A stretch of DNA of 64,000 bases from an uncultured Gemmatimonadales bacterium. Its GTDB lineage: Bacteria > Gemmatimonadota > Gemmatimonadetes > Gemmatimonadales > Gemmatimonadaceae. Location of the stretch: positions 288,001 through 352,000 of the forward strand of contig CAWKNZ010000007.1 of assembly GCA_963851265.1 (NCBI GenBank), given 5' to 3'. The notes under the pieces are model-generated. The model worked only from the letters and a program-made list of their open reading frames with translations, did no database searches and was not told where the DNA came from. This document shows positions 704-64,000 of the stretch, piece after piece; the stretch's first letter is position 1, and the number at the start of each line of letters is the position of its first letter. Made by a program: the position numbers and the translations under genes.

Positions 704-2428
704 TCAGAACAGCGTGCCGCGGGCCATCAGGAAGTGCTCGACGATCGGGCCTAACGCGAGCGCGGGGAAGAACGTGAGGGCGCCGACGATGAGCACCACG
801 CCGACGAGCAGCCCCGTGAACAGCGGGGTCGTCACGGGGAACGTGCCCGACGTTTCCGGCGCGATCTTGCGGTCCGCGAGGAACCCGGCCAGCGCGAGCA
901 TCGGCACGATCAGGGCGAAGCGGCCGACGAGCGTCGCCGCGCCGAGCATCGTGTTGTAGTAGTACGTCGAGCCGGTGAGGCCGGCGAACGCGGAGCCGTT
1001 GTTCCCCACCGCCGACGAGAACGCGTACAGGATCTCCGAGAGCCCGTGCGGCCCGGCGTTGTTGAGTCCCGCCAGTCCGGGCTTCGCGACCACCGAGATG
1101 GCGGAGAACACGAGCATCGCCCCCCCCGAGATCAGGACGTAGAGCATCGCCATCTGGACCTCGCGCGCCTGGATCTTCTTGCCCAGGTATTCGGGCGTCC
1201 GCCCGACCATCAGCCCCGCGATGAACACCGTGAGCACGACGAAGATCAGCATGCCGTAGAGCCCGGCGCCGACGCCGCCGAACACCACCTCGCCGAGCTG
1301 GATGTTGAGCATCGGCACGAGCCCGCCGATCGGGGTGAAGCTGTCGTGCATGCTGTTGACGGCGCCGCACGAGGCGTCGGTGGTCATCGTGGCGTAGAGC
1401 GCGGAGTTGGCGACGCCGAAGCGCACCTCCTTCCCCTCCATGTTGCCGCCCGGGTTCGTCGCGCTCGTGACCACGTCGACCCCGCGCGCGGCGTGGATCG
1501 GGTTGCCGCGCGCCTCGGCCCAGTAGGCCGTCGTCACGCCCGCGAAGAAGAGCGCGAACATCGCCCCCCACACCGCCCAGCCGTGCCGCTGCCGCCCGAC
1601 CATGCGCCCGAGCAGCCACGTGAGCGCCGACGGGATCGCGAAGATGAGGAACATCGACCACCAGTTGGTCCACGGCGTCGGGTTCTCGAACGGGTGCGCC
1701 GCGTTGGCGTTGAAGAACCCGCCCCCGTTGGTCCCGAGCTGCTTGATCAGCTCCTGGCTCGCCACCGGCCCCATCGCGAGCGTCTGCCGCGCACCCTCGA
1801 GCGTGGTGAGCGAGACGTACGGGCGGAAGGTCTGGATCACGCCCTGCTGCACGAGGAGCAGCGACAGCACGATCGAGAGGGGCAGCAGCACGTAGAGCGT
1901 GCCGCGCACCAGGTCCGCCCAGAAGTTGCCGAGGCGCCCCCGGGCCTCCTCGCCCCGGCGCGCGATGCCGCGCACGAGGCCGACCGCGACTGCCATGCCG
2001 ACGGCCGCGGACGCGAAGTTGTGGAACGCGAGCTGGGTCATCTGCGAGAAGTACGACATCGTCGTCTCGCCCGAGTAGCTCTGCCAGTTGGTGTTGGTCG
2101 TGAAGCTCGCCGCCGTCTCGAACGCCTGCCGGTCGGGCACGGCGCCCAGGTGCTGCGGGTTGAGCGGCAGCAGGTGCTGCACGCGCAGCACGGCGTACGT
2201 GAGCAGCATCGACGCCACGCTGAACAGCAGCATGCCCGCGGCGTAGCGCGTCCAGTGCTGATCCTCCGCCGGATCGACGCCGCCCGCCGCGTAGAGCGCG
2301 CGCTCGACGGGCGCGAGCCACCGTACCCGGCCCTCGTACACCGCGACGAGGTACTGGCCTAACGGTTTCGCGACGAGGAACACCGCCGCGCACATGAGGA
2401 GGATCTGCAGCCAGCCGTTGATGGTCAT
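704..2428 (-). CDS. kdpA: K+-transporting ATPase subunit A
   Basis: 574 aa polytopic membrane protein with TNTNWQSYSGE, KQLGTNGGGFF, GNMEGKEVRFG and NNGSAFAGL motifs. Confidence 0.97.
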   Translation of the reverse strand: MTINGWLQILLMCAAVFLVAKPLGQYLVAVYEGRVRWLAPVERALYAAGGVDPAEDQHWTRYAAGMLLFSVASMLLTYAVLRVQHLLPLNPQHLGAVPDRQAFETAASFTTNTNWQSYSGETTMSYFSQMTQLAFHNFASAAVGMAVAVGLVRGIARRGEEARGRLGNFWADLVRGTLYVLLPLSIVLSLLLVQQGVIQTFRPYVSLTTLEGARQTLAMGPVASQELIKQLGTNGGGFFNANAAHPFENPTPWTNWWSMFLIFAIPSALTWLLGRMVGRQRHGWAVWGAMFALFFAGVTTAYWAEARGNPIHAARGVDVVTSATNPGGNMEGKEVRFGVANSALYATMTTDASCGAVNSMHDSFTPIGGLVPMLNIQLGEVVFGGVGAGLYGMLIFVVLTVFIAGLMVGRTPEYLGKKIQAREVQMAMLYVLISGGAMLVFSAISVVAKPGLAGLNNAGPHGLSEILYAFSSAVGNNGSAFAGLTGSTYYYNTMLGAATLVGRFALIVPMLALAGFLADRKIAPETSGTFPVTTPLFTGLLVGVVLIVGALTFFPALALGPIVEHFLMARGTLF

Positions 2429-2456
2429 CGGCCGGATCCCGCGTCGGCACGGCGCA

Positions 2457-2546
2457 TCAGAACCGCTCCGGCCGGAGGAGCGTGTACGTGAGGTACACGA
2501 GGAGCGCCGCGGCGAGCAGCCCGGCGACGGCGGTCTCAGCGCTCAT
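2457..2546 (-). CDS. kdpF: KdpF subunit (29 aa)
   Basis: MSAETAVAGLLAAALLVYLTYTLLRPERF, with the typical YL..LLRPERF end; just upstream of kdpA. Confidence 0.9.
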   Translation of the reverse strand: MSAETAVAGLLAAALLVYLTYTLLRPERF

Positions 2547-2652
2547 CGCCCCCCTCCGCTGGCGCCGCGCCGAGGCGCGCGCACCCGCCGACGTACGCGA
2601 GCATGAGGGCGAAAAAGCCGATCGATCCGGCGACGTAGAGGAGGTCGAGCAT
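2536..2652 (-). CDS. 38-aa single-TM peptide upstream of kdpF
   Basis: MLDLLYVAGSIGFFALMLAYVGGCARLGAAPAEGGDER; its 3' end overlaps the kdpF RBS and start. Confidence 0.7.
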   Translation of the reverse strand: MLDLLYVAGSIGFFALMLAYVGGCARLGAAPAEGGDER

Positions 2653-2784: not shown

Positions 2785-4443
2785 CACCGGATCGGCGAAC
2801 GCGTCGTCCCCGAGCCGCGCGCCCGGCAGCCAGAGCGTGAACACGCTCCCGCCGCCCTCGCGGGCCGCGTACGACACGGTCCCGCCCTGCCGCTCCGCGA
2901 GCCCGCGCGCGATCGCGAGCCCGAGCCCCGCGCCGCCGGCGTCCACCCGAGCGCCCGGCGCGCGATAGAACGGCGCGAAAATCCGCTCGCGCTCGGTCGC
3001 CGCCACACCCGGGCCGCGGTCGCACACGTCGATGCACAGCCGCGGCGGCGCGCCCTGGTCGGCGGCGTCCTCTTCTAGCGCCTCGCGGACCAACACCTCC
3101 ACCGCCGTGCCCGCGGGCGCATACTTGTGCGCGTTCTCGACGAGGTTGACGAGCGCCCGCGCGGCCTGGTCGACGTCGAACCGCCCGAGCAGGAGCGGCG
3201 CGCCCGCCGGCAGCGACACCTCGACCGCCCGACCGCCGCTCGCGGGATCGCCGAGCGCGCCGGCGACGCGCTGCAGCACCACGTCGAGCAGGTCGTCGAC
3301 CGCGACCACCTCGGTCGCGACGGGCATCGCGCCGGCCTGCAGGCGCGACAGGTCGAGCAGCGCGCCCACCAGCCGCGCCAGCCGGTCGGCCTCGGCCTCG
3401 ATCGTCGCCGCCTCCTCGACGGCGTCGGGACCGTTGGGCGACGTGCGGAGGGCGTGCGCATGCGCCTTGATCGACGTGAGCGGCGTGCGCAGGTCGTGCG
3501 ACACCGCCGCGAGCACCGCGTCCTTCGCGCGCGCGGCTTCCTCGAGCGCGGCGGCGCGTTCGGCCGCGCCGGCGAGGCGTTCGCGGTCGGCCGCGAGCGC
3601 GGCGTACGCGGCGAGCGCGTCCAGATACCGCCACCGCTCCGCGGGCACACGCAGTCCGTCGCGCGCGGAAATGCGCAGCACGCCCACGAGTCGCGCTGCC
3701 ACCGGATCACGGCGCGCGTCCTCCGCCGCGAGCGGCGCCCCGTCGGCGGCTCCGTGGCGCTCCGCCGCCGTCAGCGGGACGGAAACCGCGCGCAGCTCCG
3801 ACGGGTCGAGCGGCGTCAGCGCGCGCAGCAGGCTCGCGTTAGGCGCGCGCGCCAGCCGCGTGGTGCCGTCCGTTCGTTCGGCGACGACGGTCCGCTCGCG
3901 CGCGGCGAGCCTCGCGTCGAGCGGCGGCGGGTGACCGTCCTCGGGCAGCGATCCCGTGTCCGCCAGCAGGCGAAGGATTGGGTCCACGCCCGTCAGCTCG
4001 TCCACGGCCCAGACGGCGCACGCGTCGAGGCCGACCGTGTCGCGGATCGCGGTGGCCACCGCGCCGGCCGCGTCGCGCGCGCGGGCTGCCGTGAGCGCGC
4101 GCGCGCCGAGCGCGGCCAGGCGGTCCACCTCCGCGGCACGCGCGCGTGCCGCGGCCGCCTCCTCGCGCGCGGCCGACAGGAGTCGCGCCGCGACCACGCT
4201 CGTGATCAGGAAGGCGACGAGCACGAACCAGTCGCGCGGGTCCGCGATGGCGAGCGTGCCGTACGGCGGGAGCAGGAAGTAGTCGAACGCGACGAACGCC
4301 GCGCCCGCGACGGCGAGGCCGAGCGCCCACCCGCCTCCCGCGCTCGCGCCGAGTACGACGAGCAGCAGGACGAGCGCATCGTGTGCCTTCTCGAGTCGGC
4401 CGCGAACGGCGACGAGGAGTCCGACCGCGACCGCGAGGTACAC
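2770..4443 (-). CDS. kdpD: KdpD-like sensor histidine kinase (TM/DUF4118, GAF-like, HisKA, HATPase); lacks the N-terminal KdpD and Usp domains
   Basis: Four TM helices with AFDYFLLPPYGTL, H-box VSHDLRTPLTSI, NLVENAHKY, DRGPG, GAGLGL. Start uncertain: first in-frame GTG downstream of kdpE is at 4443, but coding may begin near 4512. Confidence 0.85.
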   Translation of the reverse strand: MYLAVAVGLLVAVRGRLEKAHDALVLLLVVLGASAGGGWALGLAVAGAAFVAFDYFLLPPYGTLAIADPRDWFVLVAFLITSVVAARLLSAAREEAAAARARAAEVDRLAALGARALTAARARDAAGAVATAIRDTVGLDACAVWAVDELTGVDPILRLLADTGSLPEDGHPPPLDARLAARERTVVAERTDGTTRLARAPNASLLRALTPLDPSELRAVSVPLTAAERHGAADGAPLAAEDARRDPVAARLVGVLRISARDGLRVPAERWRYLDALAAYAALAADRERLAGAAERAAALEEAARAKDAVLAAVSHDLRTPLTSIKAHAHALRTSPNGPDAVEEAATIEAEADRLARLVGALLDLSRLQAGAMPVATEVVAVDDLLDVVLQRVAGALGDPASGGRAVEVSLPAGAPLLLGRFDVDQAARALVNLVENAHKYAPAGTAVEVLVREALEEDAADQGAPPRLCIDVCDRGPGVAATERERIFAPFYRAPGARVDAGGAGLGLAIARGLAERQGGTVSYAAREGGGSVFTLWLPGARLGDDAFADPVFMAS

Positions 4444-8259: not shown

Positions 8260-8261
8260 GG

Positions 8262-10736
8262 TCACTGCATAGCGGCACGCCCCGCGCGCGCAGGCTTCAC
8301 GTACGTGTCGAGCCAACTGACCATCTCGGCCAGCGTGTGCCCGATGCTCTCGCGCGCCCGGTACCCGTGCGCCTCCGCGGGCAGCTGGACGTAGCGGACC
8401 TTCGCGCCGTTCCCCTTGAGCGCCGCGTAGTAACGCTCGCTCTGGATCGGAAACGTCCCCGTGTTGTCGTCGGCCATGCCGTGGATCAGCAGCAGCGGCG
8501 TGTGCACCGAGTCGGCGAAGGTGAACGGCGACATGGCCGTGTACAGACCCTGCGCGCGCCAGTAGTCGCGCTCCTCGCCCTGAAAGCCGAACGGGGTGAG
8601 CGTGCGGTTGTACGCCCCACTCCGCGCGATCCCGGCCCGGAAGAGGCTGGTGTGCGACAGCAGGTTGGCGGTCATGAACGCTCCGTACGAGTGCCCGCCC
8701 ACCGCCACACGGTCGCGGTCGCCGACGCCTAACGCGACCAGCTCGTCCACCGCGGCCCGCGCGCTCGACACGAGCTGCTCGACGTACGTGTCGTTCGGCT
8801 CGCGGCCGTCCCTGCCGACGATCGGCATCGTCGGGTTGTCCATCACGCCGTAGCCCTGCGTGAGCAGGAACAGCTCCGACGCGCCGGTCGGCCGCGTGAA
8901 CCGGTACGGCGAGCCGATCACCTGCGACGCGGCCGCGGCGGAGCCGTATTCCAGCGGATAGGCCCACAGGAAGAACGGCAACGGACCGTCACGCTTGGCG
9001 TCGTACCCGGCGGGCAGGTACACCGTCGCCGACAGGTCGACGCCGTCCGCGCGCTTGTACGTGACGAGCCGCGACGTCACGCCCGCAAACTGCGGTGCGG
9101 GGTCGCGGAAATTCGTCAGCTGCACGGGGGCCATCCGCCGCACCGCCTCGCGACGCCAGTAGTTGGGGACCTCGGTGACTCCCTCGCGCCGCGTGAGCAG
9201 CGTCGCGGCATCGGGATCGACGACGGCGACGGTTTCTTCGTAGTAGGGCGCGGCCGACCGGAACAGGCGCTCGGTCTTGCCCGTCGCGAGCTCGTACCGG
9301 TCGACGAACGGCCGGTCCCCCTCCGCCGACGCGCCCGTCCCGGTGAGGAACGCGTGGCGGCCGTCGCTCGACGTGAGCAGCACCGGACGCCCATTCGCGT
9401 TCGGCGCCGTCTCGAACCGGCCGGGGTCGGCGTACCGGTCCTCCGACGACCGGTCGAACACGAGCCGTGGCGCCTTGCTCGGGTCGCTCGGGTCGAACGC
9501 CCAGGTTCGCGTGCGACGGGTCCGCCGCCAGTTCTCGGTCACGAACGCGAGGTCGGTGCGCGCCCAGACGACGCCGGCCCCGCGGTAGCCGAGACGGGCG
9601 TGCTCGACCGGCGCGCCCGAGAACGGGGCCGAGAGCGAGCGGAGCACGTCGTGTGCGGCCACCTTGGTCTGCGGGTCGCCGCCGTCCAGCGCTTCGACCC
9701 AGGCGACCGTGGCCGGCGCGTCCGATCGCCACGCCACGTTGCGCGGCCCCACCGGCACCGCGTCGAACCGGCGCGACGCCTGCTCGTCGAGCGGGGCGTC
9801 GTCCACGACGCGCGCGACGCGCCCACTCAGCTCCCACACCTCGGTGCGGCTCGCGAACGCGCCGAACGGGACGAGGTACGAGTACGGCCGGTGCGCGGTC
9901 TCGACCAGCAGCCACCGGCCGTCGGGCGACGGCGCCACTCGCGTCCGCACCGCGGGCGTACCAACCGGCGTCCAGTGTCCGTCGAGCGTGGCGATCGCGA
10001 CCTGCGCCGTGGCGTAATGATCGAACTGCGCCTCGTCGTCCGGACTCTTGAGCAGGTCCTCGAACGTCGGGTTAGGCGCGGCCTTGCCGTCGGACTCCTG
10101 GACGATCGGGCCCGTCGGGACGGCCGACGCGGCCGGCGCCGGCCCGCGCGCCGCGGGCACGGTGAGGCACGCGACGCGCGCCGGCGACACCCAGGCGCAC
10201 GGCGCCGCGGTGGTCGCGGCGTTCAGCCGCGTGGCGCCCAACGCGCGCGCGACCACCGGCCCCGACGCGCCCGACACGGGCGCGTCGGCGACGAGCAGCG
10301 AGATGCCCGTCGGGCGCGTGAGCGTGAACGCGACGTGCCGCCGGTCGGGCGCCCACAGCGGCGCGCCGAGCCGCAACTCGCCCGCCACGCCCGGTACCAC
10401 CAGGGCGCGTGACGCCCCACCGTCGAGCGGTGTGAACGTGACGCCCGTGTAGGTCACGTCGCGCGACGGACCGTTGGTGCGCGGATTGATGCGCAGACCG
10501 GCGAGACGGAGTTCGGGCGCGCCGACCTCGCTGATCGGCGGAAGGCCGCGCCGCCGGAGCTGAACCAGCCACCGCCGGTCGGGACTGACGACCGCCGCCG
10601 GGAGGGGCTCCGCGTCGAGCATCTGCGCGATCGGCGCGGGGGGCTGCCGGTAGCCGGTCTGCCCGACCACTGGCGTTGCGGCCAGGGTCGCGAGTGCCGC
10701 CGCAACCGCGGGCGGTGTCGAGGGATGGAGGCGCAC
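8262..10736 (-). CDS. Secreted S9 prolyl-oligopeptidase-family peptidase
   Basis: Signal peptide, propeller-like region, nucleophile GHSYG, DDN, EAHGY. Confidence 0.92.
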   Translation of the reverse strand: MRLHPSTPPAVAAALATLAATPVVGQTGYRQPPAPIAQMLDAEPLPAAVVSPDRRWLVQLRRRGLPPISEVGAPELRLAGLRINPRTNGPSRDVTYTGVTFTPLDGGASRALVVPGVAGELRLGAPLWAPDRRHVAFTLTRPTGISLLVADAPVSGASGPVVARALGATRLNAATTAAPCAWVSPARVACLTVPAARGPAPAASAVPTGPIVQESDGKAAPNPTFEDLLKSPDDEAQFDHYATAQVAIATLDGHWTPVGTPAVRTRVAPSPDGRWLLVETAHRPYSYLVPFGAFASRTEVWELSGRVARVVDDAPLDEQASRRFDAVPVGPRNVAWRSDAPATVAWVEALDGGDPQTKVAAHDVLRSLSAPFSGAPVEHARLGYRGAGVVWARTDLAFVTENWRRTRRTRTWAFDPSDPSKAPRLVFDRSSEDRYADPGRFETAPNANGRPVLLTSSDGRHAFLTGTGASAEGDRPFVDRYELATGKTERLFRSAAPYYEETVAVVDPDAATLLTRREGVTEVPNYWRREAVRRMAPVQLTNFRDPAPQFAGVTSRLVTYKRADGVDLSATVYLPAGYDAKRDGPLPFFLWAYPLEYGSAAAASQVIGSPYRFTRPTGASELFLLTQGYGVMDNPTMPIVGRDGREPNDTYVEQLVSSARAAVDELVALGVGDRDRVAVGGHSYGAFMTANLLSHTSLFRAGIARSGAYNRTLTPFGFQGEERDYWRAQGLYTAMSPFTFADSVHTPLLLIHGMADDNTGTFPIQSERYYAALKGNGAKVRYVQLPAEAHGYRARESIGHTLAEMVSWLDTYVKPARAGRAAMQ

Positions 10737-11667: not shown

Positions 11668-14600
11668 CTAGGATGGCGCCGCCGTGATCGGCACGACACC
11701 GTTTGCGCGCAACACGCTCGCGTCGGCATCCCGCCACAGCGCGGCGGCGCCGGCCGACGCGGCGCGACGCGCGTCGGTGTCGCCGACGTCATGACCCACG
11801 AGCCGCGCGCGCAACGCGAGCGCGCGCCCGACCGCCGCGGCGCGCGGCACGTCGTCCAGCATGTGCGTGTTCTGATTCGGCAACTGTCCAATCGCGCCAC
11901 CGAGTGTCGCGATCGCGGTGGCGGTGTCGCCAGCCCATGCCTGCAGCCAGGCCTCCTGAAACACCGCGTCGAGCGTCGCTACGATCCCGACCGACGCGCG
12001 CCGTCGCGCCACCGCGGCGAGTGCCGTGCGTGCCGCATCGGCATGGCCCCGAGCGGCCGCTCGTTGGGCCACGAGCAGGTACCATCCGGTGGTGTCGTCG
12101 GGGAGCGCCTCGTGCAGTTCCGGGAACGACAGCACGACGAGCCGCCGGAAGAACCCCGCCCGCACGTCGGCGCTCGTGAGCGCGCCCACCTGCGTGAGCA
12201 ACGCCGCGCCGCGATCGCGAGCGGCGACCACGCTGTCGTGTGGCGCGCCGAGGCTCGCGTACGCGACGCCGGCGGCGAGCGCCGCGCGACCCGCTCCGAC
12301 GGGAGCGGGCAATTCGTCGTCGGGCGTCACGCTTCTATCGCGCGCGGCGATCCGAAGGAGCGCGGCCGAATTGTTCGCACGCCCGATGAGCGCGTTCGCG
12401 ACTGCGAGCGCGGCCGCCGTCGCTGGGGTCGGCGTGGGAACGTCGGCCATCATCCGTTCGGCGGCCACGCGAGCGTCCACGAACCGCTGGAGCTTCACCA
12501 GCAGGCGCAACTCGGCCAGCCCGAGGCGCATGGCCGGCATGCTGTCGCGCGGCGCATGAAGCCGCGCCGCGCGGACGACGTCGAGCGCTCCGGGGCCGCC
12601 GTCGTTCGCCAGACGCCCGAGCGATTCGAGCGCCACCGCGCGCAACTCGGCCGCGTCTACGCTTCGCGGAAACGCGTCTGCCCATCGTTCGGCCACGTCG
12701 AGCAGCACGCGGCGGTTGCTGGCGAGGGCGGCGGCCGTGGTCGTCGGCATCGTCCACGGACGCGCAGCGGCATGGTCGGCGCGCGGGTAGGGGGTGAACG
12801 CGAGCGTGTCCGCGTTGACCGCGGGCAGCGCGGCCATCGACGTCGTATCGCCGCCGTTCACCGCGTACCCCGCTCGCCATTGCGTGCCGCTCGTCATGAG
12901 CAACCGCGGGAGGTAGGTCACCGCGCGCCCGCCGAACGCGAGGTGGACGCTCGGTACGCTGCTGAGCACGCGCCGGTACGCGTCGATCGCGCCGCGATAG
13001 CTCGACCGGAACCGCCACCCGCTCGGGCTCGCGGGGTCGCGCACGACGAGCGAGTCCTTGGCCTGGCAATCGCCGAGTCCATACCACGACGCGAAATCCA
13101 TCGAGTCACGGCGCACGAGTGCCAGATACCGCCTGCACGCGTCCGGATACCGCCCGTCGGCGAGCGCCGCGAGTGCGCGCGCCGCCTCGCCGTCGGCCGG
13201 CGCCATGCGCTGCGCCAGTGCCGTGGCGCGAGTCGCGGCGCGCTGCCACTCGACACGCGGCGCGTCGAGCATCCACGCGTACGCCTGCGCACGCCACCGG
13301 TGCGCGAGGGCGTACTCCGGGTCGAGCGCCGCCGCCTCCCCGAACGCCTGCGCCGCCCCGTCGAGGTCCCAGCGCGCGAGCAAATCGTGCCCGCGGTCGT
13401 ACGCGCGCCACGCACCGAGCGACGTCGTGCCTAACGCGCCCGGAACCGACAATCGGCTCCGCGCCGTCCCGAGCAGCAGCGAATCGGCGAGCTCGGCGAA
13501 CCCGCGACTCAACTCGTCCAGCGCGATGGCCGGCCGGATCGTATGCTCGCGCCGCGTGCTGTCCGGGCGCGCGACGTCGTAGAGCGCGGCCCGCACTGCG
13601 ACGCGCACCGGAGGCCGGCCTTCCGCGGCCGTCCGTTCACCCGACTCCGCGCGGGGCGCGCGAGCGATCGTTCCCCATGCGAGCCGGCCGGCTCCCAACT
13701 CTCGCGCGATCGCCACCGCCTCGGCGAGCGACCGCGGCGCTCCGATCCCGCGTCGCGTGAGCGCGTCGTTCACGCGCGTCGCGTTCACGACACGCAGGTC
13801 CGTCCACCGAGTCATTGCGTCGAGCAGCAGCTGCTCGGCGTCGCGACCGTCGAGCGCCGTGCTCGCGGGCGGCCGCGCGCCGCCTGCAGTCTCCTCCGCC
13901 GGCGCTGGCGAGGTTCGCTCGTCAGCGAATGGCAGCACGACGACGAGCGCGGGGTCAGCGGCACCGGTCGCGCTCGACAAACCCGGAATCAATCCCGCCC
14001 ACACGCCGGCGGCGGCGACCACGGCGAGCACCGCCGTGCCAGCCGCGACGAGCTGCAGGCGGACGCGGCGACCGCCGCGCGACGCGCGCTCGCCGGCAAG
14101 CAGGACGGCCGCGGCGCGCACGTCCGCCCCGAACGCATCGACCGTGTGATATCGCTCGGCCGGATCGAGCGCGAGCGCCCGCCGGAGGATCGCGTCCACC
14201 GCACGCGCGACCGACGCGGAGAGTCCGACCCGCGCGCCGATCTGCGGCGTGGGGATGGTGAGACGGCGCCGCAGCGCTTCGCCGGGCGTCGGCGCGTCGG
14301 CGTGCGGCGGCGTGCCGGCGAGCATCTCGTACAGCACGACGCCGAGCGACCACACGTCCACGCGTGAGTCGACACTCGGGTCCCCCGTCACCTGTTCTGG
14401 TGCCATGTACGCCGGGGTGCCGACCGCGTGCCCGGCGCGCGTCAGCTTCGTCGCGGCCCCGCGCTCCCCGGAGCTGTCCAACGTCATGCCACCCGCGTCC
14501 GGCTCGGTCCAGCGCGCGATTCCAAAATCGCAGACCAGCGTGTGCCACCGCGCCGGCCCCCCGCTGGTCGGGGTGCCCGGTCCCGTGTAACCGGAGAGCA

Positions 14601-19958: not shown

Positions 19959-20618
19959 ATGTCGATCCGTGAACAGATCCTCGACGCGGCCACGCGCGTC
20001 TACGCCGAGCACGGATTCCGCGGTGCGACCACGCGGCGCATCGCCGACGCGGCCGGCGTGAACGAGGTCACGCTCTTTCGCACGTTCGGCTCGAAAGCGT
20101 TGCTGATCGAGGCGGCGCTGCGTCATATCGGCGCCGTCGATGCGTCGGCGCCACACGCCCTGCCCGACGTCCCGCGCGACCCGGAGCGCGAACTCTTCGC
20201 CTGGGCCGCCGAGCAGCTCGACGACCTCCGCAGCAGACGGTTTCTCATCCGGCACGCGATGAACGATTTCGAGCGCCGCCCCGACGCCGCGTGCGCGGCG
20301 CAGGGGTGGAACGCGGCCGACGTCGAACTGCACCGCTACCTCGTGCGCCTCGGCGAGCACGGTTTCGTCGCCTGGGACGCGGCCGGCACCGACGAACGCG
20401 CGTCGCCGGTCGCACCCGACTCACGGCGCGAGGACGTGCTCGCCGCGGCGGCGATGTTCATGGCCGCGCTGTTCAGCGACGCGATGGGGCGCGACATGAT
20501 GCCGCACCTCTACCCGCAGCCCGCCGACCGGGCCCCCGCCCTCTACGTCCGCCTGTTCCTGCGCGCGCTCGACTGCGCCGGCTCACGCCCCGCCCCGTCC
20601 TCGACCGAGGCAGCCTAA
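19959..20618 (+). CDS. TetR/AcrR-family regulator
   Basis: ILDAA..VYAEHGFRGATTRRIADAAGVNEVTLFRTFGSK helix-turn-helix. Confidence 0.93.
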   Translation: MSIREQILDAATRVYAEHGFRGATTRRIADAAGVNEVTLFRTFGSKALLIEAALRHIGAVDASAPHALPDVPRDPERELFAWAAEQLDDLRSRRFLIRHAMNDFERRPDAACAAQGWNAADVELHRYLVRLGEHGFVAWDAAGTDERASPVAPDSRREDVLAAAAMFMAALFSDAMGRDMMPHLYPQPADRAPALYVRLFLRALDCAGSRPAPSSTEAA

Positions 20619-20622
20619 CCGA

Positions 20623-56572: not shown

Positions 56573-56591
56573 GGAAGCTTAGATTGCGGGC

Positions 56592-59432
56592 ATGACTGCG
56601 ACCGCGATCACCAGCGTGTTCAACGACGCGTACATCGCCGAGGTCTTCGAGGCGTACCGCCAAGACCCGGCCTCCGTCGACGCTTCCTGGCGCCAGTTCT
56701 TCGGCATGGCGGAGGCGATGTCCGGGCTCGTCCAGGCGGGTGCGGCCGCGCCCGCGCCCGGCGCCACCGACCCGGATCTGCTGCGCAAGGCGGGCGCGGC
56801 CGCGGCGCTCGTGCACGCGATCCGCGAGAACGGCCACCTCGCGGTCGCCCTCGATCCGTTAGGCAGCGCGCCGCCCGGCGCGCGCGAGTTGACGCCCGAG
56901 TTCCACGGGATCGTGGAGGCCGACCTGGCCGGCGTGCCCGCGGCGGCGATCGGCTTCGCCGACGGGCGCTTCGCGACGGCCGCCGACGTGGTCGCGATGC
57001 TGCGGCGCCGGTACTCGGGCGCGCTCGGGATCGAGTACTCGCACCTGACGACGGACGTCGAGCGCGAGTGGTTCCGGACGACGCTTCGCGAGGAGCGACT
57101 CACGGCGCCGCTGTCCGACGACGAGAAGCGGGCGATGCTCGAGCGGCTGACCGAGGTCGACGGGCTCGAGCGATTCCTGGGCTTCGCGTTCCAGGGCAAG
57201 AAGCGCTTCTCGATCGAGGGCACCGACGCGCTCGTGCCGATGCTGGACGAGGCGATCACGCAGGGGGCGGCGCGCGGCGCGCGCGAGATCGCTATCGGGA
57301 TGGCGCATCGCGGGCGGCTCAACGTGCTCGTGCACGTGATGGGCAAGCCGTACGAGGCGCTGTTCGCCGAGTTCGAGGGGCGCCACGCCGATCCGGCGAG
57401 CGACACCGAGACGGGCGACGTGAAGTACCACATGGGGTACGACGGGCGCCGGACGGTGGCCGGGCGCGAGGTGGCGGTGACGCTCGCGCCCAACCCCAGC
57501 CACCTCGAGTTCGTCGGCGCGGTCATCGAGGGAGAGGCGCGGGCGCGGCAGCGCGTGGAGGGCGCGCCCTGGGAGCGCGACGAGTCGCGCGTGCTGCCGA
57601 TCGCGGTGCACGGCGACGCGGCGTTCATGGGCGAGGGCGTCGTGGCCGAATCGCTCAACATGTACCGGCTGCGCGGGTACCGCGTGGGCGGCACGCTGCA
57701 CATCATCACCAACAACCAGGTCGGCTTCACGACCGACCCGATCGACTCGCGCTCGACGCACTACGCGAGCGACCTCGCGAAGGGGTTCGACATCCCGGTG
57801 CTGCACGTCAACGGCGACGACGCCGAGGCGTGCGTGATCGCGGTGCGGCTCGCGACCGCCTACCGCGCCGCCTTCGCGAAGGACGTGCTGATCGACCTCG
57901 TCGGGTACCGGCGCTGGGGGCACAACGAGACCGACGAGCCCGCGTTCACGCAGCCGATGTTGTACGACGCGATCCGCGCGCACCCGACGCCGCGCCAGGT
58001 GTGGGGCGCGCGACTGGTACGCGACGGCGTGCTCGCGGCGGCCGACGTGGAGCGCGTCGACCGCGAGGTGCGCGCGCGGTTCGAGGCGGCGTACGAGCGC
58101 ACGAAGCGGGGCGCGGGCATCGGGGAGGCGCACGCCGCGGCCTCCAACGGCACGGCGACCCACGGCGAGGAGCGCAACGGCGCGGAGAGCAACGGCGCAC
58201 ACGCGGTCGCCACCGCGATCCCCGCCGACCGGCTCGTCGCGTTGCAGACCGAGCTGCTGACGTACCCCGACGGCTTCCAGCCGCACCCGAAGCTCGCGAA
58301 GATCCTCCAGCGCCGCGGCGACGCGTTAGGCGACCGGGGCGGGATCGAGTGGGGTCAGGCCGAGCAGCTCGCGTTCGCGTCGCTGGTGACCGAGGGCGTG
58401 AGCGTACGCCTGACCGGGCAGGACGCGGAGCGCGGCACGTTCGGCCACCGGAACGCGGTGCTGCACGACCCGCGCGACGGGCGGACCTACACTCCGCTCG
58501 CCAACCTCCGGGAACGGCGTGGCGCGTTCGAGGTCTACAACTCGCCGCTCACCGAGACGGCGGTGATGGCGTTCGACTACGGCTTCTCGGTCGCCGCGCC
58601 CGACGCCCTGACGCTCTGGGAAGGGCAATACGGGGACTTCGTCAACGTCGCGCAGACGATCATCGACCAGTTTCTCGTCGCCGACCGCGCGAAGTGGGGG
58701 CAGGATTCCGGGCTCGTGCTGCTCCTGCCACACGGCTACGAGGGTGGCGGCCCGGAGCACTCCTCGGCGCGACTCGAGCGGTTCCTGCAACTCGCGGCGG
58801 AGGGAAACATGACCGTCGCGTACCCGGGCACGCCCGCGCAGTACTTCCACGTCCTGCGGGCGCAGGCGCACCGCGCGTCGCGGCGGCCGCTCGTCCTCAT
58901 GCAGCCCAAGTCGCTGCTCCGACTGCCGACGGCCGCGTCGCGACTCGCGGAGCTGAGCGAGGGCGCGTGGCAGCCCGTGGTCGACCACGGCGCGCTCGAC
59001 GGGCGCGACGCCGGCGCGGTCCGACGTGTGGTGCTGTGCACGGCAAAGACGTTCTACGACCTCACCCAGCAGGAAGTACCGTCGGCGGTGGCAGTGGTAC
59101 GCGTCGACCAGCTCTATCCGTTCCCGGACGCGGAGCTGCGGACGGTCCTCGCGCGGTACGCCAACGCGCGTGAGGTGGTGTGGGCGCAGGAGGAGCCGCA
59201 GAACATGGGCGCGTGGGGGTTCGCCGCGCCGCGGCTCACGGCGGCGCTGTCGGGCAGGGCGCGGCTGCGCTACACGGGTCGTCCGGAGCGGGCGAGTCCG
59301 GCCGAAGGGTACGAGTCGGCGCACAAGGCCGAGCAAGCGCGGATAGTGGCCGAGGCGCTCGCCGTACCGCAGGAGGCGGTCGACGGCGAGGCCGTCTCCT
59401 CTCCGATCGAGGTCGAGGCGGCGAGCGGCTGA
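56592..59432 (+). CDS. sucA: 2-oxoglutarate dehydrogenase E1
   Basis: GKKRFSIEG, GMAHRGRLN, GDVKYH, NPSHLE, HGDAAF, LPHGYEG.GPEHSSAR.ER. Confidence 0.95.
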   Translation: MTATAITSVFNDAYIAEVFEAYRQDPASVDASWRQFFGMAEAMSGLVQAGAAAPAPGATDPDLLRKAGAAAALVHAIRENGHLAVALDPLGSAPPGARELTPEFHGIVEADLAGVPAAAIGFADGRFATAADVVAMLRRRYSGALGIEYSHLTTDVEREWFRTTLREERLTAPLSDDEKRAMLERLTEVDGLERFLGFAFQGKKRFSIEGTDALVPMLDEAITQGAARGAREIAIGMAHRGRLNVLVHVMGKPYEALFAEFEGRHADPASDTETGDVKYHMGYDGRRTVAGREVAVTLAPNPSHLEFVGAVIEGEARARQRVEGAPWERDESRVLPIAVHGDAAFMGEGVVAESLNMYRLRGYRVGGTLHIITNNQVGFTTDPIDSRSTHYASDLAKGFDIPVLHVNGDDAEACVIAVRLATAYRAAFAKDVLIDLVGYRRWGHNETDEPAFTQPMLYDAIRAHPTPRQVWGARLVRDGVLAAADVERVDREVRARFEAAYERTKRGAGIGEAHAAASNGTATHGEERNGAESNGAHAVATAIPADRLVALQTELLTYPDGFQPHPKLAKILQRRGDALGDRGGIEWGQAEQLAFASLVTEGVSVRLTGQDAERGTFGHRNAVLHDPRDGRTYTPLANLRERRGAFEVYNSPLTETAVMAFDYGFSVAAPDALTLWEGQYGDFVNVAQTIIDQFLVADRAKWGQDSGLVLLLPHGYEGGGPEHSSARLERFLQLAAEGNMTVAYPGTPAQYFHVLRAQAHRASRRPLVLMQPKSLLRLPTAASRLAELSEGAWQPVVDHGALDGRDAGAVRRVVLCTAKTFYDLTQQEVPSAVAVVRVDQLYPFPDAELRTVLARYANAREVVWAQEEPQNMGAWGFAAPRLTAALSGRARLRYTGRPERASPAEGYESAHKAEQARIVAEALAVPQEAVDGEAVSSPIEVEAASG

Positions 59433-59700: not shown

Positions 59701-62448
59701 ATGACCTGTTTCTCTCTCGCTCGGGCGGTCCGGCATCGACGCGGACTCCTCGCCGCCGCGGCCGGCGTGGTCGTGGCGGCGCCGACGGTGCGCGCGCAAA
59801 CGTCCACGGCGTATGAGCCGCGCGGGGCGGCGGAGCTGTCCCAGCTCGTCGACGGGCTCGGCATGACCGCGCGGGTGCTGGTGATCGGCGCGCACCCCGA
59901 CGACGAGGACACGCGCCTGATCGCGTACCTCGCGCGGGGGCGGCACGCGGAGACGGCGTACCTGTCGCTCACGCGCGGCGACGGCGGGCAGAACCTGATC
60001 GGCAACGAACTCGGCGAGGCGTTAGGCGCGATCCGGACCGAGGAGCTGCTCGCCGCGCGGCGGATCGACGGCGGGCACCAGTACTTCACGCGGGCATTCG
60101 ACTTCGGGTTTTCGAAGACGGCGGAGGAGACGTTCCGGCACTGGCCGCGCGACACGGTGCTGGGCGACGTGGTGCGCGTGGTGCGCGCGTTCCGGCCGCA
60201 GGTCGTCATCGCGATCTTCTCGGGCACGCCGGCCGACGGACACGGACACCACCAGGCGAGCGGGATCCTCGCGCGCGAGGCGTACGACGCGGCGGGCGAC
60301 ACGGTGCGGTTCCCGGCGGCGCAGTTCGGGCCCGCGTGGTCGGTCGGGAAGTTCTACCGGAACACGAGCTACCGCGGCGGCGAAACGGCGACGCTGCGGT
60401 ACAACGCCGGGGCGTACGACCCGGTGTTAGGCAGGAGCTACGCGCAGGTCGCCGCGATCAGCCGGAGCCAACACAAGTCCCAGGGGCAGGGCGGCCTGGA
60501 GCGGAAGGGCGTGTCGATCGTGAGCATGCGGCGCGAGGCGACGCGCGTCAACGAGGGCACGCCCGCGAACGCCGAGCGCGACCTGTTCGACGGAATCGAC
60601 ACGACGGTGTTCCGTGGACAGGCGCTCTCGGCGCCGGACCGTCCGCGCGCCCGCGTCGACGCGCTCGCGGCGGCGATCGAGGAGGTCCAACGCACGCTGG
60701 ACCTCCGCCGCCCCGAGCGCGTCCTCCCCGCGCTCCTGCGCGCCCGCGCCGACGCGGCCGCACTCAACGTCTCCCGGCCGGCGGCCGGTCCGCGTCCGAG
60801 CGACGGCCCGGGTTACGACGACGCGCCGCAGCAGGTGCCCGGACGCATCGACCGCGCGATCGTGCTCGCTTCGGGGTTGGCCGCGGAGGTCGAGATGTCG
60901 CGCGAGGTCGTCGCCGCCGGCGACAGCGTGCCGCTCACGGTCGCGGTCTACAACCGCGGACGTCAGCCGATCGCACTGACCGGGTTGACCTTCGGCGGCT
61001 GGTCGCACGGCTTTGGACGCAGCGGCCCCGGCGTGTTCGGCGTCTCGGGCTACCCGATCATCCTGCCGGATAGTTCGTTGCGAATCGCCATGAAGGCGTC
61101 CGCGGCGGGGCCGACGGGCGCGGGCGACCGCCCGTCGTACGCGTACACGCAGCCGGGCTGGCTCCTCGGCGGCCGAAACGGCGACTTCTATCGCGACCCG
61201 CTGTCGTTCTCGCAAACCGACGCCACGTTCAACGGACAGGTACTCAACGCGGCCGCCGTGCTCGTGAGTTTTGCGATCGCGCCCGCGGAAGGTGCGTCGG
61301 CACTGCGGACCGATGCCATCGTCACGACGCTCGTCCCGGCGGTGTTCCGCGAGGTGGATCCGGTCCGCGGCGAGGTCGACCGGCGCGTCGCGCTGGCCCC
61401 CGCACTCTCCGTTACGCTCGACCGCGCGGTCGAGTACGCTCGCGCCGACGTTCCACTCGATCGCGTCGTCACCGTGCACCTGCGGTCGGCGTCGACTGCC
61501 GCGCGCACCGCGACCGTCCGCCTGGCGCTCCCGGCCGGACTGACGGCTGACTCCGCGGCGCGCACGGTCACGCTCCCTGGATACGACGCGCGGGCCGCGG
61601 TCGACTTCCGCGTACGCGGCACGCTCCGCCCCGGCCGCGTCGTGGTGCGGGCCTCGGCCGAGTCGAACGGCGACCGGTTCGCGACCGGCTACCAACTCCT
61701 CGACTACGACCACATCCGCGCGCAGCGCCTGTACCGCCCGGCCGAGACGGCGATCGAGGCCGTCGACGTCGCGCTCCCGGCGCACGCGACCGTGGCCTAC
61801 GTGCCGGGCGTGGGCGACAACGTCGCGCCGACGCTCGCCGACCTCGGCATCCCGGTCACGGTACTCGACTCGACCGCGTTAGGCGCCGGCGACCTCTCGA
61901 AGTACACGCACGTCGTGATCGGCCCGCGCGCCTACGAGAGCAACGCCGCGCTCGCCGCCAACAACGGCCGCTTGATGGACTGGGTGGCCCGCGGCGGCAC
62001 GATGGTCGTCCAGTACGGGCAGTACGAGATGACGCGCCCGGGCGTGATGCCGTACCCGATCACGCTCGGGAGACCGGCGCAGCGCGTGACGATCGAGGAG
62101 GCGCCGGTGACGGTGCTCGACCCGGCGGCGGGGGTGCTCGGAGTGCCCAACCGCATCGGCGCGGCGGACTGGCGGGGGTGGGTACAGGAACGGTCGACCT
62201 ACATGCCCGAGACCGCCGACCCGCGCTACCGCACGGCGATCGCGATCCACGACCCGGGCGAGGCGCCAAACGCCAACGGCATCCTCCTCGCGCCCGTGGG
62301 GCGCGGGACGTACGTGTACGTCACGCTCGCCCTCTTCCGCCAGCTGCCGGCGGGGGTGCCGGGCGCGGCGCGCCTGATGGCAAACCTGCTCGCGGCACGC
62401 GCGCCGGCGGTGAATGCGGAGGCGACGCGCCCGGCGACCGGGCGCTGA
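59701..62448 (+). CDS. Exported PIG-L/LmbE-family deacetylase with Ig-like (NEW3-like) and C-terminal GATase-like regions
   Basis: AHPDDE, TRGDGGQN, RT.E, DFGFSK, HGHH; TATACT -10 box at 59642. Confidence 0.9.
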   Translation: MTCFSLARAVRHRRGLLAAAAGVVVAAPTVRAQTSTAYEPRGAAELSQLVDGLGMTARVLVIGAHPDDEDTRLIAYLARGRHAETAYLSLTRGDGGQNLIGNELGEALGAIRTEELLAARRIDGGHQYFTRAFDFGFSKTAEETFRHWPRDTVLGDVVRVVRAFRPQVVIAIFSGTPADGHGHHQASGILAREAYDAAGDTVRFPAAQFGPAWSVGKFYRNTSYRGGETATLRYNAGAYDPVLGRSYAQVAAISRSQHKSQGQGGLERKGVSIVSMRREATRVNEGTPANAERDLFDGIDTTVFRGQALSAPDRPRARVDALAAAIEEVQRTLDLRRPERVLPALLRARADAAALNVSRPAAGPRPSDGPGYDDAPQQVPGRIDRAIVLASGLAAEVEMSREVVAAGDSVPLTVAVYNRGRQPIALTGLTFGGWSHGFGRSGPGVFGVSGYPIILPDSSLRIAMKASAAGPTGAGDRPSYAYTQPGWLLGGRNGDFYRDPLSFSQTDATFNGQVLNAAAVLVSFAIAPAEGASALRTDAIVTTLVPAVFREVDPVRGEVDRRVALAPALSVTLDRAVEYARADVPLDRVVTVHLRSASTAARTATVRLALPAGLTADSAARTVTLPGYDARAAVDFRVRGTLRPGRVVVRASAESNGDRFATGYQLLDYDHIRAQRLYRPAETAIEAVDVALPAHATVAYVPGVGDNVAPTLADLGIPVTVLDSTALGAGDLSKYTHVVIGPRAYESNAALAANNGRLMDWVARGGTMVVQYGQYEMTRPGVMPYPITLGRPAQRVTIEEAPVTVLDPAAGVLGVPNRIGAADWRGWVQERSTYMPETADPRYRTAIAIHDPGEAPNANGILLAPVGRGTYVYVTLALFRQLPAGVPGAARLMANLLAARAPAVNAEATRPATGR

Positions 62449-64000
62449 CCAGCATCCCCACGGCCAGCACCACCAGCGTGCCCACCACGTTGTGCCAGAG
62501 GAACGACACGCTCGGCGCGCCGAAGTTCACCGCGGCCACCGCGCCCATCCCGGCGAGGAGACCGGCGAACGCCCCCGCCGCGCGCGCGCGCGGCAGCATC
62601 GCCAGGAAGAACACGCCGAGGATCGAGCCGTAGAAGAACGAGCCGAATCGGTTCACGACTTCGATGAGCGAGCCGAGCGTGGCCGCGTAGACCGCCACGC
62701 CGCACGCGAACGCGCCCCAGAGCGCGGTCGCGACGCGCGACGCGTTCAGGTAATGCGCGTCGCTCGCGCCGGCGCGCACCCACCGGCGGTAGAGGTCGAT
62801 CACGCTGGCCGTGGCGAGCGAGTTCAGTTCCGCGGCGACGGCCGCCATCGCCGCCGCGATTACGCCGGCGACGAACAGCCCCGCGAGCCCCACCGGGAGC
62901 TCGCGCGTGACGAAGTGCGGGATGATGTAGTTGACGTCCTTCGCGGGCGAGCCACCGGCCGCGCGCCCCGCGAGGGATAGCGCCTCGTTGCGGACCTGGC
63001 TCACGGCCGAATCGCGCGCCCGGAAGGTCGCGACCGCCGCAGCCGCGCGCGGCTCGCGGGCCAATGCCGCCGCCGCGTCGCGCCGCGCCTGCCACGCCGC
63101 GCCGTAGCGGGTCTCGAGCGCCGCGTAGGACGCGGGCGCGGCGGCGCGCGCCTGCTGCGCGTGGGCCGGGTTGTAGTAGAGCGGGGGGCGCTGAAACTGG
63201 TAGAACACGAACACGAGCACGCCGATCATCAGCACCGCGGCCTGCAGCGGGATCTTCCAGTACGCGCTCACGAGCAGCGACCGGCGCGCCTCGTCCACCG
63301 AACGCGCGGCGAGGTAGCGCTGCACCTGGCTCTGGTCGGTGCCGAAGTACGACAGCATCAAGAAGGTGCCGCCTAACACTCCGGACCAGAACGTGTAGGT
63401 GTTGGTCAGCGAGAACGAGAAGTCGAACGCGCGGAGCCGCCCCGCGGCCCCGGCCACGTGGAGCGCCGCCGCCGGTGACACCGGGATGCGGTGGAGCAGC
63501 ACGAGCACCACGCCCGCGACGGCGACGGTGATGAGCCCCATCTGCTTGACATCGGCCCACGCGACGGCCTGGACCCCGCCAGCCACGGTGTACAGCACGG
63601 CCGGCACGCCCACGAGGGCCACGCACCACGGCAGCGGCCACCCGAAAACGGCGGAGAAGACCACGGCTGGCGCCGCGATGATGGTGCCGCACGACATCCC
63701 CCGCGAGAGGAGGAAGAGCGTCGCCGTCAGCGTCCGCGTCCGCGCGTCGAACCGCCGCTCCAGATACTCGTAGGCAGTGTAGACGCCGGCCCGTCGAAGG
63801 AACGGGACGAGGGTCACGCCGAGCACCACCATCGCCACGGGCAGGCCGAAGTAGAACTGCACGAACCGGAGGCCGTCGACCGCGCCCTGCCCGGTGGTGC
63901 CGATCATGGTCACCGCCGAGAGCTGCGTGGCCATGACCGACAGGCCTACCGCCCACCACGGGAGGCTGCGTCCGGCGAGCAGGTAAGCTTCGAGATCGCG
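62321..64000 (-). CDS. Sodium:solute symporter (5' end outside window)
   Basis: LPWWAVGLSVMATQLSA, TAYEYLE.RF, GG..AV.W.D, YFGTDQSQVQRY. Confidence 0.93.
   Translation of the reverse strand, partial: RDLEAYLLAGRSLPWWAVGLSVMATQLSAVTMIGTTGQGAVDGLRFVQFYFGLPVAMVVLGVTLVPFLRRAGVYTAYEYLERRFDARTRTLTATLFLLSRGMSCGTIIAAPAVVFSAVFGWPLPWCVALVGVPAVLYTVAGGVQAVAWADVKQMGLITVAVAGVVLVLLHRIPVSPAAALHVAGAAGRLRAFDFSFSLTNTYTFWSGVLGGTFLMLSYFGTDQSQVQRYLAARSVDEARRSLLVSAYWKIPLQAAVLMIGVLVFVFYQFQRPPLYYNPAHAQQARAAAPASYAALETRYGAAWQARRDAAAALAREPRAAAAVATFRARDSAVSQVRNEALSLAGRAAGGSPAKDVNYIIPHFVTRELPVGLAGLFVAGVIAAAMAAVAAELNSLATASVIDLYRRWVRAGASDAHYLNASRVATALWGAFACGVAVYAATLGSLIEVVNRFGSFFYGSILGVFFLAMLPRARAAGAFAGLLAGMGAVAAVNFGAPSVSFLWHNVVGTLVVLAVGMLVSARSPGASPPHSPPARVPRAGLPSGAPRPAPPPAAGGRGRA

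Follow-up and report, generated by a model that had tools for sequence, protein, structure and literature searches.

Sequence-specific DNA uptake is, to our knowledge, firmly known from only two proteobacterial families. The uptake signal sequences (USS) of Pasteurellaceae and the DNA uptake sequences (DUS) of Neisseriaceae are short, exact words present in hundreds to thousands of copies, which lie in both orientations without replication polarity, and both families of words show dialects. The highly iterated palindrome HIP1 (GCGATCGC) of cyanobacteria is a hyper-abundant short word in coding sequence, accommodated at synonymous sites and patchy among relatives; it is tied to cognate methylases, and a methylation-linked or mismatch-repair bias has been proposed as its origin. 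Chi, the FtsK-orienting polar sequences (KOPS) and the architecture-imparting sequences (AIMS) are asymmetric words of 7-8 bp that occur about once per few kb, and the integron core site follows the rule GTTRRRY, with RYYYAAC as inverse core (available text of PMC3053210). The present study concerns a stretch of 64,000 nt from an uncultured Gemmatimonadales bacterium (assembly GCA_963851265.1, contig CAWKNZ010000007.1, positions 288,001 to 352,000), hereafter called the window, and the heptamer GTTAGGC (reverse complement GCCTAAC), which recurs throughout it. GTTAGGC is a real, strong DNA-level feature, and by analogy with USS and DUS it is tentatively proposed to be a self tag of the uptake-sequence kind, which spreads through a drive coupled to recombination.

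GTTAGGC shared with USS and DUS not only copy number, exactness and lack of replication polarity, but also a location mostly within genes in the least-cost frames, relatively even spacing, positions partly conserved between species, a patchy distribution by genus and family, and a genome that encodes a type IV pilus, ComEA and ComEC. It differs from them in belonging to Gemmatimonadota with 73% GC, in its length of only 7-9 bp without extended flanks, in having no dialects in two word-poor relatives, in having no identified ComP-like receptor, and in coinciding with the integron core. As with HIP1, the word is written into coding sequence at synonymous sites and is patchy, whereas it is not a palindrome and no gene for a cognate methylase was detected. 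The size, asymmetry and density of the word, together with an AddAB-like enzyme, recall Chi and KOPS/AIMS; unlike them, it showed no clear co-orientation with replication, its enrichment was far sharper than is usual for Chi, and it was absent from sister genera and most genera, with no replacement in two poor genomes. Finally, it is spelled identically to the integron core (R' and R'' of attC), and cassette arrays of relatives begin with GCCTAAC and end with CGTTAGGC, in line with the core rule in the available text of PMC3053210; in contrast, the genomic copies are single, unpaired, located in conserved genes and independent of the integrase IntI. In PMC Creative Commons articles and bioRxiv (subscription journals lay outside the scope), no description of GTTAGGC was found, nor any of a Gemmatimonadetes uptake sequence, natural transformation, integron/attC or over-represented oligonucleotide that matched it, and matches to the bare word were primers.

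The genome carrying the window (G000; 4.60 Mb in 12 contigs) contained 1,762 copies of GTTAGGC, split 885 to 877 between the two strands, or about one per 2.6 kb, and copies were found on every contig; the enrichment was therefore not confined to the window. Placement was determined with our own gene calls (3,663 genes covering 87% of the genome). Under a codon-shuffled null in which each protein and the codon usage of each gene were preserved (12 shuffles), 70.5 +/- 8.7 coding copies were expected and 1,279 were observed, an 18-fold excess. The word was sharply delimited, since it made up 1,762 of the 1,925 occurrences of TTAGG and of the 2,470 occurrences of TTAG, and variants at the outer positions were scarce (ATTAGGC 14, CTTAGGC 10, TTTAGGC 8, and GTTAGGA/G/T 36/23/27). 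The base at -1 was C in 79% and T in 14% of the copies, and the base at +7 was T in merely 83 of 1,762, which gives the fuller form (C>T)GTTAGGC(not T), or Y-GTTAGGC-V. These preferences were alike for sense, antisense and intergenic copies, and only codon periodicity was seen in the flanks beyond them. Among the 21 one-base variants, clear enrichment over the codon-shuffled null was found only for GTTGGGC (1,254 vs 506), with a lesser excess for GTTCGGC (2,646 vs 1,884; 1.4-fold). GTTGGGC is the synonymous TTA-to-TTG neighbour of GTTAGGC, one transition away at the A, and its excess is read as a pool of decayed or nascent copies.

The copies were distributed over the following contexts.

Sense, G-TTA-GGC: 991 copies
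Antisense, gene reading G-CCT-AAC: 194 copies
Antisense, gene reading GC-CTA-AC: 75 copies
Sense, GTT-AGG-C: 24 copies
Sense, with the G of the word at codon position 2: 9 copies
Overlapping a stop codon: 172 copies
Truly non-coding: about 297 copies

When these numbers were related to the amino-acid opportunities available, the fill rates were similar across classes, namely 990/12,585 (7.9%) for sense Leu-Gly, 194/1,837 (10.6%) for antisense Pro-Asn, 119/846 (14.1%) for Ala-stop, 83/1,329 (6.3%) for [CSRG]-stop and 3.7% for [SGRC]-Leu-Thr; the excess of sense copies thus follows from the abundance of Leu-Gly pairs. Saturation dropped to 24/3,373 (0.7%) at Val-Arg-x, where two rare codons are required, indicating that the placement of the word minimises cost. 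Stop codons were drawn into the same pattern, as 119 of 423 TAA stops stood in the context GCC-TAA-C and 83 of 731 TAG stops in GT-TAG-GC. The use of TTA likewise depended on the following residue: 1,024 of 1,270 TTA codons preceded Gly, and TTA provided 8.1% of Leu codons in Leu-Gly pairs vs at most 0.65% ahead of any other residue. A tRNA-Leu(UAA) gene was present. It is well supported by these results that GTTAGGC is a signal in duplex DNA and not a codon effect. The initial annotation of the window had regarded the word as a lineage-specific, genome-marking signal kept against codon bias, and this is well supported by the null model, by placement in all classes and by the patchy distribution described below.

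Within the window, 20 exact copies were found, in comparison with a mean of 2.0 in dinucleotide-shuffled sequences (sd 1.35, maximum 5; 0 of 100 shuffles reached 20). The sites were aligned with two congeners of genus g1, G001 and G004; G003 belongs to the same genus, and G012 is a hyper-rich genome of another genus. The copies are as follows.

749..755, minus strand: kdpA, Leu-Gly (G-TTA-GGC) on the coding strand; aligned sequence GCCGAGC in G004; unaligned in G001
2357..2363, minus strand: kdpA, Leu-Gly; different in G004; unaligned in G001
3838..3844, plus strand: antisense in a KdpD-like histidine kinase gene, which reads G-CCT-AAC, Pro-Asn; different in G001
8727..8733, minus strand: S9 peptidase gene, Leu-Gly; retained in G001
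10071..10077, plus strand: antisense in the S9 peptidase gene, Pro-Asn; atypical G at -1; one-off GTTGGGC in G001
13429..13435, minus strand: Ser/Thr kinase-TPR gene, Leu-Gly; GCCGAAC in G004
15807..15813, minus strand: 1070-aa spermine-synthase-domain gene, Leu-Gly; retained in G004 and G001
17817..17823, minus strand: the same 1070-aa spermine-synthase-domain gene, Leu-Gly; retained in G004 and G001
18658..18664, minus strand: cytochrome P450 gene, Leu-Gly; retained in G001, lost in G004
20613..20619, minus strand: provides the TAA stop of a TetR gene (GCC-TAA-C); retained in G004 and G001
26354..26360, plus strand: VirJ-domain gene, Leu-Gly; retained in G004; GTTGGGC in G001
27071..27077, minus strand: antisense in the VirJ-domain gene, Pro-Asn; private to G000 in the comparison of three congeners
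31982..31988, minus strand: antisense in an acyl-CoA dehydrogenase gene, Pro-Asn; only in G000
45940..45946, plus strand: antisense in a YkuD L,D-transpeptidase gene, Pro-Asn; only in G000
56858..56864, plus strand: sucA, Leu-Gly; retained in G004 and G001; same alignment column in G003 and G012
58325..58331, plus strand: sucA, Leu-Gly; retained in G004 and G001, also in G003 and G012
60021..60027, plus strand: PIG-L-domain 893-aa gene, Leu-Gly; retained in G004 and G001
60426..60432, plus strand: PIG-L-domain gene, Leu-Gly; T at -1; retained in G004 and G001
61878..61884, plus strand: PIG-L-domain gene, Leu-Gly; retained in G004 and G001
63371..63377, minus strand: T at -1; in-frame Leu-Gly in the open reading frame 62321..63934 (minus strand, GC content at third codon positions 0.93), which was missed by the gene caller; retained in G001, lost in G004

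A recount reproduced the coordinate and strand of every copy in the initial annotation, as well as its host genes (KdpA, SucA, P450, TetR and others) and its codon contexts, which were 14 Leu-Gly (13 by gene calls and the site at 63371), five Pro-Asn and one TetR TAA stop. Counting of 9-mers likewise gave 16 of 20 copies that extend to CGTTAGGC with C at -1. As had been noted by eye, nearly all TTAG/CTAA tetramers of the window belong to the word: the total was 23, consisting of 20 in GTTAGGC, two in the near-variants at 16464 (GCCTAAT) and 35056 (GTTAGGA), and one unrelated at 56579. The near-variant GCCTAAT at 16464-16470 was aligned with a perfect GCCTAAC in G004, and thus it represents a copy that has decayed or is still incomplete, and not a sequence unrelated to the word.

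The comparison with the congeners revealed active turnover with retention above background. Window sites were retained at 9 of 17 aligned positions in G004 and at 11 of 17 in G001, while phase-matched 7-mers spanning three wobble positions were kept at 26.3% and 23.9%, respectively (binomial p = 0.017 and 0.0004 for GTTAGGC). Conversely, the word occurred at aligned places without a G000 copy 16 times in G004 and 20 times in G001. Five of these sites were common to both congeners, which indicates loss in the G000 line, and three copies (27071, 31982 and 45940) were private to G000. Both sucA sites were shared with G003 and also with G012, at 58% protein identity; this sharing may be convergence, as Leu-Gly opportunities are few.

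Neighbouring copies avoided each other within about 300 bp. When the observed number of copies in each class was redistributed over the real opportunities (300 trials), 69 +/- 8, 136 +/- 11 and 316 +/- 15 spacings of at most 100, 200 and 500 bp were expected, and 26, 46 and 193 were found. Relative to this null, the density of all pairs was 0.37, 0.30 and 0.46 for successive 100-bp bins up to 300 bp, rose to 0.83-0.89 between there and 600 bp, and was about 1 at larger distances. In 120 kb of the hyper-rich G012, four spacings of at most 100 bp and 17 of at most 200 bp were counted, vs 16.9 and 31.9 under a plain exponential. Such repulsion is not predicted by a process that acts independently at each site, such as biased repair, and is predicted by a benefit or a drive with saturation at the level of the DNA segment. 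Fairly even spacing of USS is described as the expected outcome of uptake-biased molecular drive in the available text of PMC7811141, and Karlin's finding of even USS spacing is cited in that of PMC1939737.

The orientation of the word tracked gene strand (rho 0.55) and not GC skew (rho 0.06). On contig C2, whose terminus was placed near 1.34 Mb by gene orientation and cumulative skew, intergenic copies numbered 29 vs 33 on the leading and lagging strands, and sense copies were still the majority in lagging-strand genes (41 vs 16). After normalisation to opportunity, no significant difference between leading and lagging strands was found for Pro-Asn (6/38 blocks). The word therefore has no clear replication polarity, and the earlier argument against a polarised Chi- or KOPS-like role holds, with only the marginal Leu-Gly excess considered below.

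Close inverted pairs of the palindrome type were present only three times in the genome. One of them is a perfect 30-bp palindrome at G000:C2:116118-116147 formed by two inverted copies (GCCTAACG...CGTTAGGC). This palindrome follows a 703-aa gene at a distance of about 60 bp and is reminiscent of the hairpins that DUS pairs form in Neisseria.

Saturation varied among genes. With Leu-Gly and Pro-Asn combined, it increased with the GC content at third codon positions (GC3) of the gene, from 6.2% at 0.85-0.90 through 10% and 16.7% to 21.9% at 0.96 or more, although GTTAGGC itself lowers GC3. This gradient may bear on the under-representation expected of uptake sequences in recently acquired or atypical DNA, but the gene caller misses the most atypical genes and the gradient may have other causes. 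In 69 genes from the window and C1:170-240 kb, saturation was correlated with identity to two congeners (rho 0.33, p = 0.006) and with GC3 (rho 0.44), and from the lowest to the top identity tertile 4 of 94, 2 of 67 and 17 of 86 opportunities were filled. Both gradients would fit a drive coupled to recombination, a process that also increases GC3 and makes species more homogeneous.

The largest interval without the word measured 45,086 bp (G000:C1:182876-227962), vs a maximum of 33 kb under the spacing null (300 trials). This region has native GC3, contains about 150 Leu-Gly pairs by a rough tally, and holds gidA/mnmG, parA, parB and mnmE, with dnaA 185 kb away on the same contig. The corresponding region carried two copies each in G004 and G001 over an aligned length of about 37 kb, vs a rough expectation of about 20 from their genome-wide density, and its identity to these genomes was 77-78% vs about 85% in the flanks. 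The parB neighbourhood of G012, on the other hand, was undepleted, with 98 copies in 80 kb. Since it is as dense as elsewhere in that genome, the depletion around parAB is a feature of genus g1 and not a rule, and a parAB-centred word-free zone was rejected as a general property.

The density of the word was bimodal and patchy among the genomes of the family. In a survey of 201 family genomes of at least 85% completeness, 64 were rich, defined as at least 40 copies of the 8-mer per Mb (40-1,340), and 137 fell below 40, mostly at 1-18 per Mb. The rich genomes belonged to 23 of the 64 genera and spanned a 30-fold range, from about 40 to 1,340 per Mb, with genus g9 as the richest (1,199-1,340 per Mb). 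Genus g50 contained both states, with 870-974 copies per Mb in five genomes and 13 per Mb in the sixth, G106; the sucA locus held 6-7 copies in the former and none in G106. G106 is the most divergent member, with 72-76% identity at the sucA locus vs 81.5% between two others, and it was set aside as a means of telling loss from gain, as synonymous sites are saturated at this distance and the direction is unreadable. In a tree of sucA, from which G013 and G026 (wrong open reading frame) and five genomes lacking a usable locus were omitted, the rich G008 was sister to the poor G006 (support 100/99); the deeper nodes were unresolved, so the tree did not serve as a test of a single rich clade. In a separate sample of 201 genomes from across the phylum, richness outside the family was confined to the five genomes of genus g100, which belongs to family f2 (46-180 per Mb), and 0 of 62 genomes from nine other families exceeded 15 per Mb. 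Apart from these, the only rich case seen outside the family was G030 of family f3, with 345 GTTAGGC copies in 2.9 Mb. The tallies include five genomes flagged as unpublished (G011, G045, G255, G282 and G351), each of which is one word-poor row and carries no conclusion.

Genes for DNA import were present in G000. In addition to ComEC, a ComEA-like HHH_3 protein was encoded directly upstream of PilB-PilT-PilC (G000:C7:759615-764498; locus L099 9615-14498), and at least six to seven pilin-like genes were detected. Across 31 Gemmatimonadales relatives, PilT was found in 31 and a ComEA-like protein in 28; being order-wide, neither discriminates rich from poor genomes. In many of the relatives searched, matches to ComEA and PilB/PilT lay close together on the same contig. 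From this gene content, natural competence may be a general property of the order. The pilin-like gene pair at G000:C9:33278-35204 had no match in G001, showed 34% identity in G003 and G004 and had its best matches in other genera, and it looks like a variable accessory pilin cluster.

Enzymes that could act on the word were also searched for. G000 gave no match to the profiles of Vsr (PF03852), C5 methylases (PF00145), beta-class N4/N6 methylases (PF01555) or Dam-type methylases (PF02086), and RecC was not found in it, while an AddAB/AdnAB-like pair of PD-(D/E)XK proteins was located at G000:C3:244523-248949. A 1,141-aa methylase of the Eco57I/MmeI type (type IIG-like) adjoins a 759-aa SNF2/DrmD-like helicase in DNA of native GC (G000:C7:579720-585511; locus L045 4720-10511), and enzymes of its type made it an attractive candidate for an asymmetric word of 7-8 bp. 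The methylase was present in 30 of the 31 relatives, rich or poor, with identity that tracked phylogeny, and therefore the two genes form a core pair rather than a mobile defence island; as no 60-residue segment grouped the rich genomes, it was rejected as the reader. In several relatives, the methylase/helicase locus contained one in-frame TGA. Two type I hsdM-like N6-methylase genes (C7:771474-772495 and C9:923-1858) lay in islands of lower GC (0.67-0.69) at the ends of contigs, had their coding sequence split over several reading frames, and were likewise discarded as candidates; they may be pseudogenes or the result of assembly indels. Nor did GTTAGGC behave as the target of a restriction-modification system, as it was enriched instead of avoided and the only intact enzyme, the IIG-like one, was order-wide and did not group by trait. 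In a different category, the top 7-mers of G000 under a maximal-order Markov model were AGGCGCT (2,075 vs 1,040), AAGCGCT (635 vs 234), AGCGGCT and similar words, an anomaly of AGCGCT-like words that is possibly due to restriction-site avoidance.

The few copies in poor relatives were found in one-strand arrays about 0.55-0.65 kb apart. In the word-poor G021, one 20-kb stretch of contig C95 held 26 GTTAGGC and 22 GCCTAAC, and this array consists of attC sites of the form GCCTAAC(A)-about 85 nt-CGTTAGGC, in agreement with the RYYYAAC/GTTRRRY rule; cassette DNA carries two words per about 0.6 kb. Integron remnants were also seen in G000 (C6:1014-6044 and C10:188935-203785). The open frame of its intI is interrupted by about 2 kb (C6:3005-6044, with matches at C6:5244-6044 and 3005-3166), and attC-like GCCTAAC...GTTAGGC pairs 66-149 bp apart occurred on C6, C9, C10 and C11. 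In the genome as a whole, 11 of 1,750 neighbouring pairs had GCCTAAC followed by GTTAGGC within 200 bp, eight of them 66-149 bp apart, and the genomic copies were not arranged as attC/attI cores, which pair across an imperfect palindrome of 57-141 bp beside IntI. IntI (TIGR02249, E <= 1e-60) was detected in 45 of the 64 rich genomes and in 82 of the 137 poor ones (Fisher p = 0.16), and in none of the four genomes of the richest genus g9, and accordingly the integrase was rejected as reader or driver of the genomic copies. The resemblance to GTTRRRY pointed out in the initial annotation is therefore an identity at the level of sequence, used in the attC arrays of relatives, whereas the trait itself is independent of the integron integrase.

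Under the proposal of an uptake-like tag, a protein present only in some Gemmatimonadales lineages would read GTTAGGC in double-stranded DNA, and a component of the type IV pilus/ComEA/ComEC import route would prefer fragments that carry it. Imported fragments would then replace chromosomal alleles by homologous recombination, and because of this replacement alleles spelling the word would be over-transmitted, a form of molecular drive. The word would be expected to accumulate where it costs least, at synonymous Leu-Gly and Pro-Asn pairs, TAA/TAG stops and spacers. Copies would be spaced apart because one tag per fragment suffices, and would concentrate in the most recombining, best-conserved, highest-GC3 genes because drive needs recombination. 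The anatomy of the word, its statistics, its turnover and its distribution among genomes are observed, as is the presence of the import genes, while the import bias, the spread by recombination and the identity of the reading protein are what we infer. Among the three kinds of explanation raised by the initial annotation (an uptake sequence, a nucleoid or partition protein site, and a methyltransferase- or repair-driven motif), the uptake sequence fits best in view of the repulsion, the strand symmetry, the cost-minimising placement and the import genes, and the methylase/repair kind is weakened by the repulsion and by the lack of a match to Vsr or to C5, beta-class N4/N6 or Dam-type methylases.

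Several results weigh against an uptake tag. The import genes explain nothing about the patchiness of the word, because they are equally present in word-poor genomes. No reader was found among IntI, the IIG-like methylase, three pilins and the methylase, Vsr and RecC profiles; of the at least six to seven pilin-like genes, the three compared across 31 genomes (C7:452369-452890, C3:173442-174677 and C9:34212-35204) did not track the trait. No replacement word of the dialect kind was detected in 200 kb each of the poor G006 and G015, where the top 6- to 8-mers reached z of about 8.6; in the same third-order Markov test, CGTTAGGC had z = 37 in 200 kb of G000. A marginal leading-strand excess was seen for Leu-Gly (13.5% saturation vs 8.8% on the lagging strand, p = 0.04, 6/38 blocks). 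The short-range repulsion is also expected for the spaced sites of a chromosomal protein, and the gradients, which depend on our own crude gene calls and, for identity, on 69 genes, could equally reflect slower decay in slow genes or a younger age of low-GC3 genes.

The possibility that GTTAGGC is bound inside the cell by a lineage-specific protein, with selection keeping about one site per few kb for nucleoid structuring, as a nuclease-protecting 'self' mark or as a non-polar Chi-like site for an AddAB-type enzyme, is a serious one, if on balance unlikely. A sharp, asymmetric word of 8-9 bp suits a single protein reader, the repulsion fits spaced sites, site retention exceeds background, the AddAB/AdnAB-like pair is present, and the 45-kb gidA-parA-parB-mnmE zone is almost word-free in genus g1. 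However, that depletion is absent in G012, RecC was not found, and polarity was lacking in the intergenic counts (29 vs 33) and in the sense majority on the lagging strand (41 vs 16). A housekeeping role is ill-suited to a word missing without replacement from G006 and G015, from sister genera and from one member of g50, and the 30-fold range in density resembles an open-ended drive more than a set requirement. It is improbable that a methylation-linked or sequence-specific mismatch-repair bias creates and maintains the word without any functional reader. Patchiness would fit a mobile methylase/repair pair, and only one transition, at the A, separates the word from GTTGGGC, its main one-off variant; yet the Vsr, C5, beta-class N4/N6 and Dam-type profiles had no match in G000, the hsdM-like genes are broken, the intact Eco57I/MmeI-type methylase is shared by 30 of 31 relatives with no segment that groups by trait, and independent repair of single sites does not predict repulsion over about 300 bp.

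The integron itself offers another explanation, in which GTTAGGC is an R-box or core site (GTTRRRY) bound by the integron integrase, so that IntI or a relative could land on or bind to copies throughout the genome. The exact spelling of the attC ends of the order (G021), the interrupted intI and the few attC-like pairs of G000 speak for it, but it is improbable, as IntI was not associated with richness and was lacking in g9, only 11 of 1,750 pairs had an attC-like arrangement, copies arise through synonymous point changes in conserved genes and not by insertion, and cassette insertion at such sites would disrupt genes. A translational or mRNA-level feature of the codon pair TTA-GGC, or a by-product of composition, would account for the 991 of 1,762 copies that are sense Leu-Gly. 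It has next to no probability, being refuted by the antisense and intergenic copies: antisense, stop and intergenic copies were as saturated or denser and had the same flanks, the excess persisted under codon shuffling (1,279 vs 70.5) and dinucleotide shuffling (20 vs 2.0), and tRNA-Leu(UAA) is present. A bolder form of the uptake proposal, and a rather doubtful one, is that GTTAGGC is at once a true uptake tag and the same word that ends every integron cassette in the order. If so, cassette DNA would be the most 'uptake-ready' soil DNA for these bacteria, transformation specificity would be tied directly to cassette traffic, and the genomic copies would be the footprint of the import bias.

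In summary, if the proposal of an uptake tag is true, GTTAGGC would represent a third, independent case of sequence-specific DNA uptake, and 'self-tagging' would be a wider strategy. Gemmatimonadota is an abundant soil phylum with few cultured members, in which the word could mark gene flow and possibly serve as a genetic tool. Rich and poor genomes stand side by side, both as sister genera and as one poor genome against five rich ones in g50, and provide natural contrasts for finding the reader. Whatever that reader is, the shared spelling of the word and the integron cassette core makes a connection between the acquisition of cassettes and transformation a testable idea. Even if uptake is the wrong explanation, a word of 7-9 bp that overrides codon usage thousands of times would still imply an undescribed, strong force acting at the level of DNA.

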